Positions 1 to 8,254 of a stretch of 8,254 nucleotides of DNA are shown piece after piece. Source of the DNA: a virus (lineage: Duplodnaviria; Heunggongvirae; Uroviricota; Caudoviricetes); IMG/VR virus record IMGVR_UViG_2663763413_000004. One strand, 5' to 3'. A program made the position numbers and the translations under genes. The notes beneath the pieces are model-generated. The model saw only the letters and a program-made list of their open reading frames with translations. It made no database searches and was not told where the DNA came from. Positions within the stretch are counted from its first letter, which is position 1. Every line of letters starts with the position of its first letter.

Positions 1-83
1 ACTCAAACAGCCAGAAACCACGGCCACGCATCGTTGCCATTGAATGCGAGCAACGCTGCCATGAAAAAGCAAATCATGCTCAT
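1..83 (-). CDS. possible 5' fragment of a spanin-like gene downstream of the endolysin (unresolved)
   Basis: ATG at 83..81 overlaps the endolysin stop TGA (82..80) as ATGA and encodes a hydrophobic start ([14 protein letters not shown]...), but this frame stops after 26 codons (5..3). Another frame encodes ...CVAVVSGC (lipobox-like) with no canonical start. Does not match my recollection of Rz from DLP12; the window edge prevents resolution. Confidence 0.2.
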
Positions 84-584
84 TGTTGCCCCCACAAACA
101 GACTTCACGCTCAATCTCACGGCGAGTCATCAGCCCTTTCCATTGCTTACCGCCAGCGTATGTCCAGCGCCGTAGCTGATCACATGCGCCTTTGATATCG
201 CCCTGGTTTATTTTGCGAAGAAGCGTCGATGTTCTGAAATTGCCAGCGCCCACGTTGCACGTTGTAAACGAATGAGTAAAGAGCGCCGCGCGTTGTTTCC
301 GGTATATCGACTGTGATGTACGGGTTAATTTGTCTGGCGACAGTGGCAAGGTCTTTATTCAGGAGGGCTTTGCATTCTGCTTCGGTATACGTTTTACCGA
401 GCATGATGTCTTTTCCGGTGTGTCCGTGACATACAGTCCATACGCCAACGATATCTTTGTATGGTATGTAGCTGACACCTTCCAGGCCATCGTCACCACT
501 CGGACCAGTGATGAGCACAGACGCTATGGCAACAGCCCCACCACCAATAGCAGCAGCAATAGCCTTGCGTAATGATGGCGACAT
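80..584 (-). pseudogene. rrrD: SAR endolysin (phage-21 R / RrrD-type lysozyme), disrupted by a +7 frameshift
   Basis: ORF 180..584 gives the N-terminal 109 aa, including a Gly/Ala-rich signal-anchor-release segment ([20 protein letters not shown]), and ends ...[12 protein letters not shown] 80..349 resumes from residue 34 as [18 protein letters not shown]...CLWGQQ in another frame. Joining them gives 165 aa, the length I recall for RrrD. The break coincides with a perfect tandem 7-mer at 251..264. Start ATG 584..582 overlaps the holin stop (TAATG), with GAGG upstream. Confidence 0.85.
251..264. repeat. perfect 7-bp tandem duplication (cacgttg x2) causing the endolysin frameshift
   Basis: Plus strand reads gcc-cacgttg-cacgttg-taaacg. 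Removing one copy restores the coding strand TAC AAC GTG GGC GCT GGC (YNVGAG) and a continuous 165-aa endolysin. Confidence 0.9.
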
Positions 585-799
585 TATTCACCTCTCGCAG
601 CCTTACGCTTATCTTCTTTAATCTTGAAATAAAGGTTTGTCAGATACGTCAGCAAGCCAAATACCAGACTACCCAGCACACCTATTGCCGCCCACTGTGA
701 GGGCGTGACTTTATCGAGCAACTGTAAAAACCAGTACCCGGCACTACCTGCTGAGGTGCCATAGGCGACACCCGTTGTTAACTTATCCATGGATTTCAT
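584..799 (-). CDS. essD: class II pinholin (phage-21 S21 / EssD-type), intact
   Basis: 71 aa, [28 protein letters not shown]..., with the Met1-Lys-Ser-Met4 dual-start motif known for S21 and two hydrophobic segments. GAGGTGGGG lies upstream of the ATG; the stop overlaps the endolysin start. Confidence 0.88.
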
Positions 800-940
800 A
801 ACCCCACCTCGCAGACAAAGCGGGTGTAAATTAAGGGGATACTACGTATCGCAATAAAGGCAGAAACGTAACAGATTTGGAGTCAGTGAATAACTCAGGT
901 ATTGGGTTATCAGCTAATATCGAGACTCAAAAAATGGAAA

Positions 941-961
941 AACCCGCTCGACGGCGGGTTT
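941..961 (-). terminator. GC-rich hairpin with flanking A/T runs; intrinsic-terminator-like, stronger on the minus strand
   Basis: CCCGC (943..947) pairs with GCGGG (954..958). On the minus strand the stem is followed by TTTTTCCATTTTTT; on the plus strand only by TTTA. Lies ~145 bp upstream, in minus-strand sense, of the pinholin start. Confidence 0.5.
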
Positions 962-1005
962 AAGCTGTGTGACGAAGTAACCACTCTTAACAGCATAACC
1001 AATTT

Positions 1006-1019
1006 TTTACGTACGTAAA
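1006..1019. repeat. perfect 14-bp palindrome TTTACGTACGTAAA in the porin upstream region
   Basis: Read directly; the sequence equals its own reverse complement. About 370 bp upstream of the porin ATG in AT-rich DNA. Confidence 0.6.
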
Positions 1020-1388
1020 CTACTAAATGATATTTGTGAGAATGCCACCGAGTGTTCAAAACACCACCACAAATACATAAGAAAACTTCAACAAATAACC
1101 AATGAATAATTTCCGATGTTATTTTTAGTTTGTTTAAATTAAGCTAAAGAATTATAGAGCGCTTATAAATAAGTGCCATTAATATAAATTAGCTAATAGA
1201 TTTATTTTCGTTCAAACAAGAGCCATGAATAGGATTAGATAGAAAAGGTTCAGATAAAAATAGAGATCTACTTCACAAATTAAATGAGAAACTAAAACTT
1301 ACATCTTGAAATAATCGCATTGATTAGATGAATATTTATCGCGCAGTGACATCATTTTTTAATAATAGTTCAAAAAAAAGGGCGTACA
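1020..1388 (+). promoter_or_regulatory. AT-rich porin upstream region (promoter and 5' UTR presumed here)
   Basis: Long AT-rich tract of the kind seen upstream of classical porin genes; AGGG at 1379..1382 sits 6 nt before the ATG at 1389. No -35/-10 element can be assigned confidently by eye. Confidence 0.3.
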
Positions 1389-2501
1389 ATGAAAAAATTA
1401 ACAGTGGCAATTTCTGCTGTAGCTGCATCAGTACTGATGGCGATGTCTGCTCAGGCAGCTGAAATTTATAATAAAGACAGTAACAAGCTGGATCTATACG
1501 GGAAAGTTAATGCCAAGCACTACTTTTCCTCTAATGATGCAGATGATGGTGATACTACTTATGCCCGTCTTGGCTTCAAAGGTGAAACCCAAATCAACGA
1601 TCAACTGACTGGTTTCGGTCAGTGGGAATATGAATTCAAAGGCAACCGTGCTGAATCTCAAGGTTCTTCCAAAGACAAAACCCGTCTTGCATTTGCAGGC
1701 CTGAAATTTGGTGATTACGGCTCAATCGATTACGGCCGTAACTACGGTGTAGCATACGACATCGGTGCGTGGACTGACGTCCTGCCAGAATTCGGTGGTG
1801 ATACCTGGACCCAAACAGATGTGTTCATGACTGGTCGCACTACTGGTGTTGCAACTTATCGTAACAACGACTTCTTTGGTCTGGTCGATGGCCTGAACTT
1901 TGCTGCTCAGTATCAGGGTAAAAATGACCGCACTGACGTAACTGAAGCCAATGGTGATGGTTTCGGTTTCTCCACTACTTATGAGTATGAAGGATTCGGC
2001 GTGGGTGCAACCTATGCTAAATCAGATCGCACTGACGGTCAGGTCGCCTATGGTAAGAGCAAATTCAATGCCTCCGGCAAAAATGCGGAAGTATGGGCTG
2101 CAGGCCTGAAATATGATGCGAACAATATCTATCTGGCTACCACATATTCTGAAACTCAGAATATGGCTACCACATATTCTGAAACTCAGAATATGACCGT
2201 TTTTGGTAATAACCATATTGCAAACAAAGCACAAAACTTTGAAGCAGTAGCACAATATCAGTTTGACTTCGGTCTGCGACCATCTGTTGCTTACCTTCAG
2301 TCAAAAGGTAAAGACCTTGGTGTTCATGGTGACCGAGACTTAGTCAAGTATGTCGATGTCGGTGCTACTTACTACTTTAATAAAAACATGTCCACTTTTG
2401 TTGATTACAAAATCAACTTAATTGACGATAGTAAGTTTACCAAAACAGCTGGTATTGATACCGACGACATCGTCGCTGTAGGTCTGGTTTATCAGTTCTA
2501 A
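1389..2501 (+). CDS. nmpC: outer-membrane general porin, NmpC/OmpD/Lc family (prophage moron)
   Basis: 370 aa. Signal peptide [23 protein letters not shown] followed by AEIYNKD; conserved porin blocks ([49 protein letters not shown]) and the C-terminal VGLVYQF ending in Phe. Divergent from the lysis genes, as in DLP12. Symbol assigned from recall of the NmpC N-terminus. Confidence 0.9.
2135..2194 (+). repeat. perfect 30-bp in-frame tandem duplication inside the porin gene
   Basis: ggctaccacatattctgaaactcagaatat occurs at 2135..2164 and again, identically, at 2165..2194. It encodes the duplicated decapeptide [20 protein letters not shown]. Confidence 0.95.
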
Positions 2502-2520
2502 TCTGACTTACGAAAAAGAT

Positions 2521-2550
2521 ATGTTGCGGGAGGCTTTGCCTCCGCAACAT
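2521..2550 (-). terminator. 12-bp stem-loop; intrinsic terminator on the minus strand (tR'-like candidate downstream of Q)
   Basis: ATGTTGCGGGAGG / CCTCCGCAACAT with a 5-nt loop and one bulged G. On the minus strand it is followed by ATATCTTTTTCG; on the plus strand by ATAAGTGG, so no U-run there. Confidence 0.5.
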
Positions 2551-2689
2551 ATAAGTGGAGCCCTCAAGCCACTTCCTTTAGAAGCACTACCTTGCTTCTT
2601 ACTATATAAACCTTCTGTTATATATTACCCTTTATTTTGGGGGCGTTTCCACGCCCCATTTTTAATAACTTTTAGTAAACAATTGCATA
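2551..2689 (-). promoter_or_regulatory. candidate late promoter (PR') and Q-utilisation region downstream of Q
   Basis: In lambdoid phages PR' and qut lie immediately downstream of Q. This interval lies between the Q stop and a minus-strand terminator. No -35/-10 can be assigned confidently by eye. Confidence 0.3.
2639..2662 (+). terminator. intrinsic terminator for the porin transcript
   Basis: GGGGCGT / ACGCCCC stem (2640..2656) followed by ATTTTTAATAACTTTT on the plus strand. Confidence 0.6.
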
Positions 2690-3073
2690 TCAATTAGAAT
2701 TATTAGCAACGATATCCATATCTAACCGGATATCTAATGCCATTAACATCCCTTCAATTATGCCCTCAGCCTTCTGTAACCTTTTCCCGATATAACCATC
2801 CGAGCAGCAATGCTTACTTGCCAGTGACATGAATGTCATACCACATACATAATAATCTACTAATAAATCGTGTAAATCGCTGTTGTTCTTTTTCAGACGG
2901 GCCATGCACCCGCAAATGATCATCGCGTCATCGTCACAACATTGCGGGCGAGATTTTACTTTTGAAGGAATTAATCCCTTAAAACCGGCGGCAACGGACG
3001 ACCAGGTCACATCTTCATGATTATTAGCCGCCCACGCTCCCCAACGCTCAAGAACCATCTGAATATCACGCAT
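2690..3073 (-). CDS. quuD: late-gene antiterminator Q (phage 82 / QuuD type)
   Basis: [24 protein letters not shown]...[27 protein letters not shown]..., 127 aa from the ATG at 3073..3071, which has GGAG upstream. The ORF track extends it to 3088 ([10 protein letters not shown]); the shorter start matches the recalled QuuD length. Confidence 0.88.
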
Positions 3074-3158
3074 CAACTTACTCCACAAAAATCAGACCAG
3101 AACGCCAATTACAAGCAAAAATCAACAAAACAGTATTAGTTGATTGTTATCTCTGACT

Positions 3159-3299
3159 TCATACTCCTGCTCCTGTCAGGGTTTTGGCGTAATTCTTCAG
3201 TATTCGGTAATCGGTCAAAACAGAACCAGGAAAACGATATAAGCGCAGGCGCACCCAGCGGCGGCGAAGACGCTCTGCCATATAAGACTCAAACATCAT
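3159..3299 (-). CDS. ylcG: small nin-region protein YlcG (46 aa)
   Basis: Hand translation: [46 protein letters not shown]. Its ATG (3299..3297) overlaps the rusA stop as ATGA. Missing from the ORF track, presumably below its length cut-off. Identification from position and the recalled 46-aa length. Confidence 0.7.
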
Positions 3300-3662
3300 T
3301 CATCTCCCAGTTCGGTGATGGTCAGCTCCAGCTTCCCACCTTTGGTAACGGGCATCTTCACAACACGGTAATCAACGACCTGAATATCATCCAGCCAGAA
3401 ACCTGCTTTGGTGAGTGCGTCAAAAGCGGCTTTTTGCAGATTATCCAGGTCACGGCGACGGCGATCCGGCATGTGGCACTCAATACGGATTTTCACTCAC
3501 TGGCATAGCCAAGCCGATATCCAGCATTGCGTTTTTAATGATTCGGGCGACGTTATCGCAGTATGCCTGCCCCTCTGCGCTGACGTGCGTGCGCCCACGA
3601 TTATGGCGGTAATAGCGATTATTGCTCGGAGGCCAAGGTAATGTGATGCTGTAGGTATTCAC
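3296..3662 (-). pseudogene. rusA: Holliday-junction resolvase RusA, disrupted by a +4 frameshift
   Basis: ORF 3480..3662 encodes residues 1-55 ([24 protein letters not shown]...LAMPV) and then stops. ORF 3296..3496 encodes the rest ([26 protein letters not shown]...ELGDE) in another frame. Together they give the 120 aa of RusA. GTG start at 3662..3660 overlaps the ybcO stop (GTGA). Confidence 0.85.
3494..3501. repeat. perfect 4-bp tandem duplication (cact x2 on plus; GTGA-GTGA on the coding strand) causing the rusA frameshift
   Basis: Coding strand reads CCA GTG AGT GAA AAT CCG TAT TGA. Deleting one 4-mer gives CCA GTG AAA ATC CGT ATT GAG TGC CAC (PVKIRIECH), the expected RusA sequence. Confidence 0.9.
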
Positions 3663-3949
3663 GCCTCAATAACCCCCTCTTTCAACCAGATAACCTGTGT
3701 TCTCGCCATACCTTCCAGCGCGCATTCTTTTGCATATCCAGCGTCAACAAAATGCGTGCGACGGTCGATTTCGTCGTGGCAGGCAGAACATGCAATGGTG
3801 GCAATCAGGTCTGGCGGTTTGATACCGGTACCGCACAATCCAGCCAGCCGGATATGTGCCAGTACTGACGTTTCAGGATTGCCATTACATACGCCAGGGA
3901 TTCTTACCTGGCATTCCCGACCACGCGCTGCTTTTCTCAAATCAGCCAT
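3659..3949 (-). CDS. ybcO: YbcO-family (DUF1364) putative nuclease, nin region
   Basis: [35 protein letters not shown]...[11 protein letters not shown]..., 96 aa from the ATG at 3949, which has AGGAGG upstream. The ORF track's longer 109-aa start overlaps ninE. Confidence 0.82.
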
Positions 3950-4112
3950 GATTCCTCCTTGCTGCCAGTCGCAACCATTTTTTATCAACCAGGCTGGCGG
4001 TATACCCGAGCAGTGTTGGTATTTCGGATGGCTTCAGCTCAGGTTTACGCTTACGACGATTTGGTACTTTGTAGATGTGTCCGTTCATGATACGAATAAG
4101 CGGTGTAGCCAT
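3942..4112 (-). CDS. ninE: NinE (56 aa)
   Basis: Hand translation: [56 protein letters not shown]. Its ATG overlaps the ybcN stop (TAATG) and its 3' end overlaps the ybcO start by 8 nt. Not in the ORF track. Confidence 0.78.
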   Translation of the reverse strand: MATPLIRIMNGHIYKVPNRRKRKPELKPSEIPTLLGYTASLVDKKWLRLAARRNHG

Positions 4113-4567
4113 TACGCCTCCTGCTTGTCGCGCAGCAGCTGGAACTCGCAGCGCTGCGGAATAGTCAGGTGGCAGCCAATATTCATCGCCCAGGCTTCAA
4201 CCTTACACAGGAAGACATACATCTCTCCGGTATCAAGATCGGAGGTATGGCGTAACGACTGGATAGTAGTGATTTCGCCGGTTACGACATCAACCAGGTC
4301 CTTGGTTTCATAACCGAGGTATGTGTGTTTGAGAGCATCTTTTACCCATGCTGCGGTAGCGAACGATTTCCCCCTGCTGATGAGGTATTCACTGATTTCG
4401 CTGTACCACATATGGCTGAGTGCATTCTGGGAAAGACTGCGTTTCTCACGCCACGGTTTAAGCACCATGCGAAAGCATTTTCCGTCCTCCAGATAAGGCT
4501 GGATCTGCTGGCCGAAAGCGGTGAAGTTGCCGCGATGCAATTTGATGCCATCTTGTGGGAGGTTCAC
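4112..4567 (-). CDS. ybcN: YbcN-family nin-region protein (151 aa)
   Basis: 151-aa ORF with a GTG start at 4567 preceded by GGAGGTG. Matches the recalled length and position of DLP12 ybcN between ylcH and ninE. Confidence 0.8.
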
Positions 4568-4665
4568 GATTCACCTCCGCAGAGGCCAAACGCTGGATGC
4601 AAAAAATCGCAGGTGCATTTCTGCATCTGTGAATGGAGAAGATAGGTTGGATTGTATGTGCGCAT
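4564..4665 (-). CDS. ylcH: small protein YlcH-like (33 aa)
   Basis: Hand translation: [33 protein letters not shown]. Its stop overlaps the ybcN GTG (GTGA). Identified by position and the recalled 33-aa size only. Confidence 0.5.
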
Positions 4666-5050
4666 AAACGTCCCCGTTTAGCGCAGAAGTCACAGGAGTT
4701 GTTCAGGCTCCGGTGATACAATTATGGCGAATTGATTATTCATAATCAAACAAGATAAGGTCTCAAACTTCATGCAAGCCAAGATTTATTTCTGACAGAA
4801 TTATACAAAGAAGCTATTGGTCAGAATCTACTCGGACTGTAAAACATACGCATAACCTTAAGCTCTCACTTTAAGCATTGTTGAAATAATAGCCGTCAAG
4901 TACAACCTTAACCACGACTGGGATATTTCCCTAGCTACCACGAGTTGTACTGCTATTAAACTGCCGTTAAATTCAGTAAGAGAATTTCATCCGATAAGTC
5001 AAGGCATGTAAAACATAAAAATTAACAAGATATTATCATCTGCAACACTA

Positions 5051-6058
5051 TTGTATGGTATGTCAATGGCCATGTCGGTCGGGAGTTGTGCAACACCTGT
5101 CCAGACTAATTTTCCTGGTTACACCCCGGGTGCAGATATCATTAGTGTTTCACCCACCAGAAACCAGGTCGATCTCATTGGTGATGTTGTTTATTCCCAG
5201 ATAAAAGGAACTCGTTCTGTCAGACAGCTTCACATGTCAGTTCTTGTCCCGCGAACAAATGATTTAAAACCAGCCATTATTTATTATCCCGGCGGCGGAT
5301 TCATGTCTTCTGAACATGACAAATTTATTGAAATGAGAATGGCTCTGGCTGAAGCTGGTTTTGTTGTGGCCGCTGTAGAATACAGAACAATTCCTGATAC
5401 ATTTCCAGCACCAGTTGAGGATGGGAAAGCTGCAATACGTTACTTGAGAGAACATGCCAGCGATTATGGGATTGATCCTCAAAGAATCGGAGTTCTGGGT
5501 GACTCTGCCGGTGGATGGCTTGCCCAGATGATGGGAACTACAAATGGTGACAAAACCTTTAATAAAGGTGACTTTCTTCAGCAATCAGCAGATGTTCAGG
5601 CAGTTGCCACACTTTATGGGATTTCTGACTTGTTGAATATTGGCGAGGGGTTCCCTGAATCAGTGCAGGAGGTTCATCGATCTCCTGCCGTAACCGAAGC
5701 CTTAATGATCAATGGCCCTGCATTCAGAAGTTTTGCGGGAGCCCCCATAACAGCGTCAAAAGAAAAAGCGCTAAACGCCAGTCCAATCGGACATATGAAA
5801 GGAGTAAAACCCCCATTTCTTATTATGCATGGTAGCAAAGACACTCTGGTTTCACCTGAGCAAAGCGCCAAACTATTCAGGATGTTGAAGAAGAACGGCG
5901 ATAACGCTGAGTACGTTCTGGTAGAAGGGGCTGAGCATGGCGATAATACATGGTATCAGCCAATTATTATAAACAGAGTTGTTGAGTGGTTTACTAAAAA
6001 CCTGGGAACCCCCATAAAAACCGCTACCCAACAACAAAAAACAAACGCTGACCTGTAA
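5051..6058 (+). CDS. alpha/beta-hydrolase fold esterase/lipase (Abhydrolase_3 / HSL-like family); start uncertain
   Basis: Oxyanion-hole motif YYPGGGF, nucleophile elbow GDSAGG, YRTIPDTFPAPVEDG block, and candidate catalytic Asp (HGSKDTLV) and His (GAEHGD). The track start is TTG at 5051; ATGs follow at 5060, 5066 and 5072, none with a convincing Shine-Dalgarno. An in-frame ATG at 5006 is followed at once by TAA (see findings). Confidence 0.85.
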   Translation: MYGMSMAMSVGSCATPVQTNFPGYTPGADIISVSPTRNQVDLIGDVVYSQIKGTRSVRQLHMSVLVPRTNDLKPAIIYYPGGGFMSSEHDKFIEMRMALAEAGFVVAAVEYRTIPDTFPAPVEDGKAAIRYLREHASDYGIDPQRIGVLGDSAGGWLAQMMGTTNGDKTFNKGDFLQQSADVQAVATLYGISDLLNIGEGFPESVQEVHRSPAVTEALMINGPAFRSFAGAPITASKEKALNASPIGHMKGVKPPFLIMHGSKDTLVSPEQSAKLFRMLKKNGDNAEYVLVEGAEHGDNTWYQPIIINRVVEWFTKNLGTPIKTATQQQKTNADL

Positions 6059-6060
6059 AA

Positions 6061-6085
6061 AGCAGCCCGCACTTATGCGGGCTAA
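6061..6085. terminator. hairpin between the convergent esterase and recombinase genes; likely bidirectional terminator
   Basis: 8-bp stem AGCCCGCA / TGCGGGCT with loop CTTA. On the minus strand it is followed by a T-run (CTTTTTAC); on the plus strand by AACCTATTTC. Confidence 0.5.
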
Positions 6086-6095
6086 CCTATTTCAC

Positions 6096-6122
6096 TCGAT
6101 TCAAAAGAAATTATTTTTAATG
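6096..6122. repeat. direct repeat copy 1 (27 bp, 24/27 identical to copy 2; 15-bp perfect core aaattatttttaatg)
   Basis: tcgattcaaaagaaattatttttaatg, aligned by eye with 8169..8195. Lies between the recombinase stop and the convergent terminator. Confidence 0.45.
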
Positions 6123-6407
6123 GGGGCGTGACCAGCCTCTCGGTGCTCAGATACTTAATGAAGTGGAGTGGCATTCAGGCAAGAGGTTAACATCACCTGT
6201 TCGCCATAACCAAGCACGTGCACAAAGTTTGTTATCAGTGAATTGTTTTGTGATTGGGTATTGTTGAGCTACTAGAGCAAGAATGCCAACATCCAGTGGC
6301 AGTGCCTATAGTAAAACTATAGCTCAGGGCGCTTCGTTCAAGATAGTTAATATCATATTAGTCACTTTACTTTCATACCATAGCACGGTTGAAAAAGTGA
6401 TTATTAC

Positions 6408-7934
6408 TCAAAAATAAATCTCACCATCAACCATATATTTAAGAGTACTTATCGCCTGCTGGGCGGATATTACTTTCATTAAAGGATAGTGTTTAAAAAC
6501 AATGCCATTCATAAAATAGATATCACAGGTTTTATTATCTGTATTAATTATAATTTTTTCGAATATTTTATAGGCAAGTGTACGACATAGCTCTCGCCCA
6601 TTTTTACTGGTTAAATCAATAGCATGAAAATCACCAAGTGAACTCACCCCTTTACTCTTCAAAGTTTTTAATGATACCGAAGCCCTTCGTAATTCCTTAT
6701 CTAATAGTCTTATTTTCTCTGCTATAGCGGTAACTTCAGGCGCGACAGACAATGCAACGATTAAATTATTAATTTTCATCTGAAGCTCAATAATTTTTAA
6801 CTCTAAAGTTTCATTAGCATCTTTCTTGTTTTCAACTGGTTGAATTTTGCTACAATTAAAAAGCAATTCATTAATGATATTATAATCAACCAAATCTCTT
6901 TTTATTGATGGTCTGTCACATCGATGTAATCTTCTCATCGGACAAACATAATAGCCATGCAAACTTCCAGATACCGCATGAACAATCATGGTATTACCAC
7001 AAGCCTCACACTTCATAACTGTTCGAAGTAGATTTATTAGCATAGGATTCTTGCTACTATTGCTAATACCAAAAGGTGCCAACCGAATTTCCTGTACAGC
7101 GTAAAACAAATCATCTGATATGACTCTGGGATAATAGCCAGCGATTTCACTTATCCCTTTCCCTCTTGCACGATATGAAGGTACGCATATACCTATCAGA
7201 GCTTTATTCGCTAATAATTTTTCAATTACAGAAGGTCCCCATGCACTTTCTTTTCCTGAGAAATTCTTTACAGCATGATCATTTAAATACTTGGCTATTG
7301 CATTCAATGAGCGCCTTTCCATCCTGAGTTTAAAAATTAGCTCAATAGTTTTCACCCTGTCGGGGTCTGGAACAAAAGCCGTTCTTTTGTCATCCAATGA
7401 GAGCCATCTCGGACAAGAAGCCGTCATAATCGTGCCTGACTCCAGTGCATCCTGCCGTTTTTTCTTCCATGATAATTTAACCCGACTTGACTTTATCTCG
7501 CTTTCTTCATTTGCCCTTTGTGCTATAAGTATGGCTTTTATTAATGAATATGGCTCATTCAATGAGTCAATATTATAGACTGTATTATCGCAAAGAGTTA
7601 TAACATCAATACCGTGATTCAAAATCAATTTCAGACGCTCAATCGCTTCACCGACTTTTTCTCTTGAAAGTCTGTCCAGACTTTCAACTAACAATGTAGT
7701 CCCTGGCAATATATAACCATGTTCTATAGCATCTAAAAATTCCGAAAAAGCTCCTGATTGTGCATGCTTTCCATTGAATGCGCTTAACCCCAAATCTTCA
7801 TACGTTACGGTATCAAGGTAATAATCACTATTTACCTTTAGCCATTCAGTAATAAGCCTTCTCTGGCGGTTTAATGAATCACCAGACATCTGACCTGGTG
7901 ATGAAAATCGCATATATGCTATGGCTTTTTTCAT
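6408..7934 (-). CDS. ybcK: large serine recombinase (508 aa; resolvase-type catalytic domain, recombinase domain, zinc ribbon, coiled coil)
   Basis: N-terminal AIAYMRFSSPGQ...SLNRQ and LLVESLDRLSRE match resolvase/invertase catalytic motifs (Arg-x-Ser nucleophile region). C-terminal CEAC...YYVCPMRRLHRC is a zinc-ribbon-like cysteine cluster, followed by a predicted coiled coil. AGGTG lies 5 nt upstream of the ATG. Length and locus agree with my recollection of DLP12 YbcK; the symbol is recall-based. Confidence 0.85.
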   Translation of the reverse strand: MKKAIAYMRFSSPGQMSGDSLNRQRRLITEWLKVNSDYYLDTVTYEDLGLSAFNGKHAQSGAFSEFLDAIEHGYILPGTTLLVESLDRLSREKVGEAIERLKLILNHGIDVITLCDNTVYNIDSLNEPYSLIKAILIAQRANEESEIKSSRVKLSWKKKRQDALESGTIMTASCPRWLSLDDKRTAFVPDPDRVKTIELIFKLRMERRSLNAIAKYLNDHAVKNFSGKESAWGPSVIEKLLANKALIGICVPSYRARGKGISEIAGYYPRVISDDLFYAVQEIRLAPFGISNSSKNPMLINLLRTVMKCEACGNTMIVHAVSGSLHGYYVCPMRRLHRCDRPSIKRDLVDYNIINELLFNCSKIQPVENKKDANETLELKIIELQMKINNLIVALSVAPEVTAIAEKIRLLDKELRRASVSLKTLKSKGVSSLGDFHAIDLTSKNGRELCRTLAYKIFEKIIINTDNKTCDIYFMNGIVFKHYPLMKVISAQQAISTLKYMVDGEIYF

Positions 7935-8168
7935 GGTGACACCTGCTAAAGTATGCTTTTATAAACCTTAGTGGTGAGATATGATTTTTGTTTAATTTTT
8001 ATTTAAAAAGACAATTAAGGTCACATTATCTTGAATATACAACAATAATCGCATTGCAATTTTCTTACACCATAATCTTGAAAGCACAAAAGAATGAATA
8101 AAAACTAAAGACATTAACAAAAAGCATAAAACGAGGCCCATATAAATATACGAGCCTCCATATTTTAG

Positions 8169-8195
8169 TCGTTTAAAAACAAATTATTTTTAATG
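8169..8195. repeat. direct repeat copy 2 (pairs with 6096..6122)
   Basis: tcgtttaaaaacaaattatttttaatg, about 235 bp upstream of the recombinase start. Confidence 0.45.
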
Positions 8196-8254
8196 TGGTG
8201 TGCTTCGTGACAATAAATTAATAACCAACACACCGGCACAAATCAACATCATGC

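Follow-up and report, generated by a model that had tools for sequence, protein, structure and literature searches.

Three perfect tandem duplications lie within the first 3.5 kb of an E. coli prophage sequence, and two of them disrupt genes. We asked whether these duplications are mutations carried by the strain or were introduced when its sequence was put together. The window, by which we mean the whole stretch of 8,254 nucleotides analyzed here, corresponds to the entire 8,254-bp contig AOQJ01000029.1 of the 2013 draft assembly GCA_000397385.1. It was identical to the public contig, which ruled out a planted or altered sequence. No literature was found on the contig or assembly accessions.

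The underlying prophage segment is an ordinary DLP12-like lambdoid one and matches many B2-type E. coli identically. The gene order rzpD-rrrD-essD-nmpC-quuD-ylcG-rusA-ybcO-ninE-ybcN ... ybcK-emrE is shared with DLP12 of E. coli K-12, and the sequences are 88-96% identical over positions 77-2426, 2460-4750, and 6369-8254. Unlike DLP12 of K-12, the window harbors a porin of the intact type without the IS5 insertion and an alpha/beta hydrolase in place of ybcL-ybcM. The contig ends at Rz. The closest complete genome was UPEC132, the prophage of which has a complete set of head and packaging genes. The window equals the UPEC132 sequence plus three tandem insertions (7 + 30 + 4 = 41 bases) and one substitution. 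We concluded from this comparison that the three duplications are real insertions in the sequence. Their positions and those of the affected and neighboring genes are given in Table 1.

Table 1. Positions of the duplications, the substitution, and the genes in the window.
Feature	Position	Strand	Description
Substitution	5..5	.	A for C; the only one compared to UPEC132; five bases from the contig end; C in the sister assembly
rrrD, phage lysozyme (endolysin)	80..584	-	interrupted by the 7-bp duplication, giving ORFs 180-584 and 80-349; PF00959
7-bp perfect tandem duplication, CACGTTG x2	251..264	.	inside rrrD; insertion compared to all relatives; frame shifted after codon 109
essD, holin	584..799	-	intact
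Prophage-borne OmpC/Lc-type porin	1389..2501	+	370 aa here, 360 aa in relatives; PF00267
30-bp perfect tandem duplication x2	2134..2195	.	inside the porin gene; periodic run of 62 bp; in frame
quuD, Q-type antiterminator	2690..3073	-	intact
rusA, Holliday-junction resolvase	3296..3662	-	interrupted by the 4-bp duplication, giving ORFs 3480-3662 and 3296-3496; PF05866
4-bp perfect tandem duplication, TCAC or CACT x2	3493..3501	.	9-bp run inside rusA; frame shifted after codon 55

The first-pass annotation had described three perfect head-to-tail duplications with identical copies, and all three were recovered. While the repeat in rrrD allows a single register only, the positions 2135-2194 and 3494-3501 given in that annotation are valid registers of longer periodic runs, the former being one of three equivalent registers of the 62-bp run. 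We compared the bare repeats with chance expectation. Perfect 4-bp repeats with two copies occurred 31 times in the window (about 25 expected); 0.5 repeats with two 7-bp copies were expected per window, and 49% of shuffled sequences contained a unit of at least 7 bp. An excess over chance was seen for the 30-bp repeat only. Chance would account for the 4-bp and 7-bp units as such, yet the relatives show that both are insertions. The flanking microhomology beyond the two full copies was 0, 2, and 1 nt for the 7-, 30-, and 4-bp events, respectively, which is about the chance level.

The effect of the duplications on the gene products was as previously predicted: rrrD and rusA are frameshifted, and the porin is lengthened in frame, as confirmed by the translated products. 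The gene identities were also correct, as they were backed by matches to PF00959, PF05866, and PF00267 and by the RefSeq annotation of the identical UPEC132 locus. The RrrD product, shortened from 165 aa to 134 aa, comprises 109 native and 25 aberrant residues. The RusA product, shortened from 120 aa to 60 aa, consists of 55 native residues followed by SENPY. In the porin, 10 residues are added after residue 259. It aligned end to end with the solved OmpC structure (E = 8e-133), with the insertion appearing as a 10-residue gap. Based on the OmpC topology, the insertion presumably lies near the start of an external loop and might be tolerated.

To define the natural variation at the locus, two complete relatives were compared to UPEC132. 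The comparison yielded 116 substitutions and two homopolymer indels of 1 bp each but not a single tandem duplication, while the window showed one substitution and three duplications (Fisher p = 1.4e-5 against the spectrum of the relatives). Judged by these two relatives, the spectrum of the window does not fit natural divergence at the locus, and on the sequence comparison the excess of duplications appears as an excess relative to natural variation. The clustering had been considered unusual: the density of the duplications was indeed abnormal compared to natural variation, while their placement within the first 3.5 kb of the contig was by itself not significant (p = 0.076).

The duplications could be recent and independent mutations in a decaying prophage, caused by polymerase slippage or template switching, that inactivated the genes of the endolysin and RusA, extended a loop of the porin, and are too young to be shared with other sequenced strains. 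The perfect copies fit recent events, loss of the endolysin can be of advantage to a lysogen, and other E. coli assemblies have broken rusA and lysozyme genes (truncated cluster members). The porin insertion, a mere gap in the alignment to OmpC that might be tolerated, also fits this view. The locus is, moreover, of the DLP12 type, and frameshifting insertions in rrrD and rusA together with an in-frame insertion in the porin gene resemble the slipped-strand pseudogene duplications in cryptic prophages (decay of DLP12, Rac, and Qin). However, three events of a rare class would have occurred beside at most one substitution in 8.2 kb, while the natural divergence at the locus consists of substitutions (116) and 1-bp indels (two) without any duplication. 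Unlike in slipped-strand decay, complete genomes show substitutions, 1-bp homopolymer indels, and IS insertions at this locus but no perfect duplications of several bp, the window has no flanking direct repeats, and no relative inherits the alleles. The lack of microhomology above chance also argues against this explanation. Of the causes named in the first-pass annotation (slippage, repair-associated duplication, or artefact), slippage was therefore unsupported.

We also searched for the duplicated alleles in other genomes, as had been suggested. With 100-bp queries for rrrD and rusA, no carrier was detected among 5,426 complete E. coli genomes, and a 40-mer spanning the porin junction was likewise absent from all 5,426. 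UPEC132 and the two complete relatives compared with it show no duplication at these sites. The porin junction was absent from species representatives, viral contigs, and metagenome contigs; the 7-bp junction of rrrD from viral and metagenome contigs; and the 4-bp junction of rusA from viral contigs and species representatives. Exact-protein look-ups retrieved the 370-aa porin and the 134-aa lysozyme from this contig only, while the intact RusA, porin, and RrrD alleles were each present on at least 1,000 contigs. Together, these searches ruled out that the alleles are shared within a lineage, and the absence of the alleles from all other genomes searched further weakens the view that they are real mutations.

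A second lesion in rusA was found in the sister assembly GCA_000397465.1, which belongs to an adjacent accession series of the same batch. There, too, the rusA junction cac|tgg is altered, in this case by a unique duplication of 2 bp (TG), and this allele was present in no complete genome. A truncated RusA product of 58 aa was found on these two contigs only. The 4-bp unit and the 2-bp unit of the sister are adjacent and not nested. The sister is not the same clone but a different strain, since more than 200 genomes share the substitution cluster in its porin as a natural allele. There were three lesions on the 8-kb contig and one on the 38-kb contig of the sister; the recurrence within the batch is based on this one sister locus. 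The more fragmented of the two assemblies, the one studied here, bears more lesions. Apart from this contig, the rusA site was affected only in a different strain of the same submission batch, and we consider real, independent mutations unlikely.

The two duplications at one rusA junction could also be explained by site-specific cleavage. A nuclease or type II topoisomerase would make staggered cuts at favored sites of the induced prophage DNA, and filling in and religation of the ends would duplicate the overhang. This would account for duplications of 4 bp and 2 bp at one junction in two distinct strains and for the lack of microhomology. In yeast, breaks made by type II topoisomerases and then filled in leave duplications of 2-4 bp as their signature. 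However, a fixed stagger does not account for the duplications of 7 and 30 bp, and the two rusA units lie next to each other rather than one within the other. E. coli is not known to have Ku/LigD end-joining, which further argues against such a process. If the site were a natural hotspot, further cases would be expected among the complete genomes with rusA (more than 3,400) or the contigs with the intact allele (at least 1,000), while only the two batch-mates are affected. We therefore regard this mechanism as very improbable. Footprints of mobile elements (target-site duplications after transposon excision) or laboratory engineering (deliberate frameshift insertions) are the least credible explanations. 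Tandem duplications of a few bp do flank insertion sequences, and two of the three events inactivate genes. However, a different element would be needed for each of the lengths of 4, 7, and 30 bp, and no remnant of any element was seen, since only duplicated bases are added to the reference. A cleanly duplicated target is not the usual result when bacterial insertion sequences are excised. The units also lack the palindromic form that restriction-site fill-ins would have, and an in-frame insertion of 30 bp in a porin gene would serve no engineering purpose.

The explanation that we favor is an assembly, joining, or consensus artefact specific to the batch rather than a new kind of mutation, and we assign it a probability of roughly three in four. 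It is favored because the alleles are private to one draft contig from 2013 among thousands of genomes with intact alleles, because there are almost no accompanying substitutions, and because the rusA junction is affected by a second, likewise unique duplication in a batch-mate assembly. Adjacent sequence pieces with ends overlapping by 4, 7, and 30 bases may have been joined. If such pieces were concatenated, or a gap was closed, without merging the overlap, the shared bases would be written twice. The same appearance would result from an error in local consensus or realignment. The real strain would then have intact rrrD, rusA, and porin genes. Microhomology at chance level is the expectation for unmerged overlaps. 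The exact pipeline step is one that we infer, while the private alleles, the abnormal spectrum, and the lesion in the batch-mate were directly observed.

Local errors, with the left and right pieces overlapping on the reference, are a recognised class in the short-read bacterial assemblers of that period and reach up to tens per genome (GAGE-B, PMC3702249). As in this class, a stretch that is single in the genome is double, head to tail, in the assembly, without accompanying substitutions and with alleles seen in a single assembly only; the lesion of the batch-mate at the same rusA junction and the base change 5 nt from the contig end also fit. The density of three duplications in 3.3 kb is, however, far above the published averages. 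With rates of 0-81 local errors per bacterial genome (GAGE-B, PMC3702249), about 0.08 are expected per 8 kb, and the probability of three or more is about 9e-5. As these rates are too low, an artefact requires a pipeline far worse than average or errors that are concentrated in this difficult part of a prophage.

Other observations also stand against an artefact. The homology to K-12 breaks at positions 77, 2426/2460, 4750, and 6369 and not at the duplication sites, which ruled out reference-guided joins at these breaks. None of the sampled lambdoid mosaic boundaries (positions 77, 386, 597, 815, 938, 1026, 1059, 2714, 2802, 2909, 3073, 3109, and 3169) coincides with a duplication, and joins at common boundaries of this kind were rejected. 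Multi-copy sequence at the sites was ruled out in UPEC132, where each probe of 100-140 bp was placed once. Thus, neither copy number in UPEC132, K-12 breaks, nor mosaic boundaries revealed a repeat or homology boundary at the lesions. In addition, a real fragile site could be the reason why one rusA junction shows two different duplications, and real inactivation would plausibly target the lysis genes of a prophage.

A real process would, on the other hand, have to be local. One event per 3-14 kb throughout the genome would shift the frame of hundreds of genes and be lethal, so that the process would have to be confined to this prophage. We consider it highly unlikely that the duplications are real and reflect a localised, microhomology-independent process in an active lambdoid prophage that hit the rusA site recurrently, and differently, in two unrelated strains. 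If they were real, the recurrent rusA site and the spectrum of duplications only would suggest that E. coli prophages undergo a kind of break repair not yet described. This would imply staggered cleavage and fill-in joining in an organism without classical end-joining.

If the duplications are artefacts, the two apparent pseudogenes (endolysin and RusA) and the porin variant with 10 additional residues in the public record are probably false. Further contigs of the 2013 batch may then hold many such false frameshifts, and surveys of gene content or pseudogenes that use these assemblies would be misled.

Alignment of the window, which was identical over the complete 8,254 bp to the public contig AOQJ01000029.1 of draft assembly GCA_000397385.1 (exact-protein look-up followed by sequence comparison), to the best complete genome, E. 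coli UPEC132 (NZ_CP040456.1), revealed exactly 7 + 30 + 4 = 41 additional bases. Direct inspection confirmed that these are the three perfect tandem duplications described in the first-pass annotation. The only other difference was a substitution at window position 5 (A instead of C), five bases from the contig end; a second draft contig from the same series of submissions, AOQN01000031.1, has C at this position, and the A probably reflects an error at the contig end. Taken simply as repeats, the 4-bp and 7-bp units do not exceed chance, unlike the 30-bp one: 31 perfect 4-bp doublets were observed in the window versus about 25 expected, and 0.5 doublets of 7 bp are expected per window. All three become meaningful in the comparison to UPEC132, which identified them as added bases. 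The clustering, which had been regarded as unusual, was not significant within the contig (p = 0.076).

The consequences for the gene products were as predicted from the sequence before. RrrD is frameshifted after 109 native residues, followed by 25 aberrant ones (134 instead of 165 aa), and RusA ends after 55 residues plus SENPY (60 instead of 120 aa). The porin gains ten residues in frame, which appear as a plain gap in the alignment to solved OmpC.

The window is a segment of a DLP12-like lambdoid prophage with the gene order rrrD (endolysin, minus strand), essD (holin), an OmpC/Lc-type porin gene, quuD, ylcG, rusA, ybcO, ninE and ybcN, followed by an alpha/beta hydrolase gene, the serine recombinase gene ybcK and the start of emrE. 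The segment with the hydrolase gene, a mosaic replacement flanked by ybcN and ybcK, has no counterpart in K-12, where DLP12 has ybcL-ybcM in its place. The porin gene forms an insert on the plus strand that separates the lysis genes, on the minus strand, from the Q antiterminator gene. With a very AT-rich 400-bp leader upstream and a GC-rich hairpin downstream, it resembles a lysogenic-conversion gene equipped with signals of its own. Apart from the duplication it is intact, while it is interrupted by IS5 in K-12. The flanks in UPEC132 (positions 1-6000 and 14200-20213 of the extracted segment) harbor terminase, portal, replication O/P-like, repressor and iss/bor genes, suggesting that this prophage may be a functional phage, unlike the cryptic remnant DLP12. 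An AT-rich 11-bp tandem repeat (2.1 copies, 91% match) between ybcK and a small ylcJ-like ORF is probably insignificant.

Features of the window and of the second draft contig (L004, AOQN01000031.1)
Feature	Window	L004	Gene or strand
CACGTTG duplication	251-264		rrrD
30-bp duplication (62-bp periodic run)	2134-2195		porin gene
4-bp duplication (9-bp run)	3493-3501		rusA
Shared rusA junction cac|tgg	3496/3497	4840-4860	rusA
Insert with porin gene	960-2560		plus
Porin gene	1389-2501		plus
Hairpin	2521-2550		
Segment without K-12 counterpart	4750-6369		
Alpha/beta hydrolase gene	5051-6058		
11-bp repeat	7984-8006		
Contig end	8149-8254	1-91	emrE

The duplicated alleles were found nowhere else in the collections searched. 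In 5,426 complete E. coli genomes, every match to the 100-bp probes for the rrrD and rusA sites contained a gap (93% identity in about 3,800 genomes and 96% in about 3,500, respectively), and a 40-mer across the porin junction had no match. A longer porin probe matched 916 genomes, and all ten matches listed were split into two pieces over 110 bp. The junction patterns were also absent from viral contigs, metagenome contigs and species-representative genomes. In a collection of 15 billion proteins, the 370-aa porin and the 134-aa lysozyme occurred on this contig alone; the intact RusA, porin and RrrD alleles were each present on at least 1,000 contigs.

We used two complete relatives as a baseline for natural variation. 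Over the same 8.2 kb, FDAARGOS_1262 and A1.S1.65 differed from UPEC132 by 43 and 73 substitutions, respectively, and by one 1-bp homopolymer indel each, with no tandem duplication. The spectrum of the window (one substitution, three multi-bp duplications) was strongly different (Fisher p = 1.4e-5). The indels, at about position 8059 of the FDAARGOS_1262 segment and, in A1.S1.65, at the equivalent of position 5963 of the UPEC132 segment, appear in the annotation as frameshifts of ylcJ and of the hydrolase gene, and may be genuine or may stem from errors in the long-read consensus.

Apart from the window, a single contig, AOQN01000031.1 of GCA_000397465.1, carried the truncated C-terminal RusA product of 58 aa. 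Since this assembly accession is 80 higher and its WGS prefix four letters later, it clearly belongs to the same series of submissions. Compared with UPEC132 over 14.3 kb, the contig had five substitutions and a 2-bp tandem duplication (TG), located at the very rusA junction of the 4-bp duplication; the TG-duplicated allele was found in no complete E. coli genome. It represents a different strain, since its three clustered porin substitutions are a natural allele in more than 200 complete genomes. Thus, in two unrelated strains from one batch, one and the same base position is the site of two duplications that differ from each other and are each unique, and more than 1,000 other rusA contigs with the same allele are intact. 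Either the sequence determines a break of the assembly at this junction, or the site is fragile. Both contigs also end inside emrE, 91 bp apart, where the gene runs on normally in UPEC132; an insertion or repeat common to both strains or a break-prone spot common to both assemblies may be responsible.

Of the causes proposed initially, an artefact of the draft assembly explained the data best (probability about 0.75), so that the earlier interpretation was supported in part. Neighbouring pieces with ends overlapping by a few bases would have been joined with the overlap left unmerged, or a gap would have been closed without merging it. The duplications fit the "local errors" of GAGE-B, in which unmerged overlaps give two copies of single-copy sequence, in numbers that vary with the assembler and reach up to tens per bacterial genome (PMC3702249). 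In agreement with an artefact, the sole base difference lies at a contig end, the more fragmented assembly of the window has three lesions versus one in the 38-kb contig of its batch-mate, and the variant proteins have no GenBank protein accession. However, from published average error rates no more than about 0.08 events would be expected in 8 kb, and the artefact therefore requires a pipeline with unusually many errors or a region that is difficult locally. No repeat or homology boundary was found at the three sites, which are single copy in UPEC132 and lie neither at breaks of homology to K-12 nor at common lambdoid mosaic boundaries.

Ordinary real mutations are an unlikely source. At one event per 3-14 kb genome-wide, hundreds of genes would be frameshifted, so the process could not act generally; it would need to be restricted to the prophage, produce tandem duplications only and leave no substitutions. 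No process of this kind is known to us in E. coli. Replication slippage, the other cause suggested at first, is not supported, since microhomology at the duplications (0, 2 and 1 nt) was not beyond chance. A site-specific break-and-fill-in process is very improbable. The rusA junction shared by both strains would result from an assembly break determined by the sequence, and a real fragile site would produce it as well. Three different lengths and the lack of extra bases beyond the duplicated units argue against transposon footprints. Our search of the literature retrieved no study citing the accessions. As biology, the duplications are most likely not a real feature of this prophage, and the value of the finding is a warning about this assembly batch.
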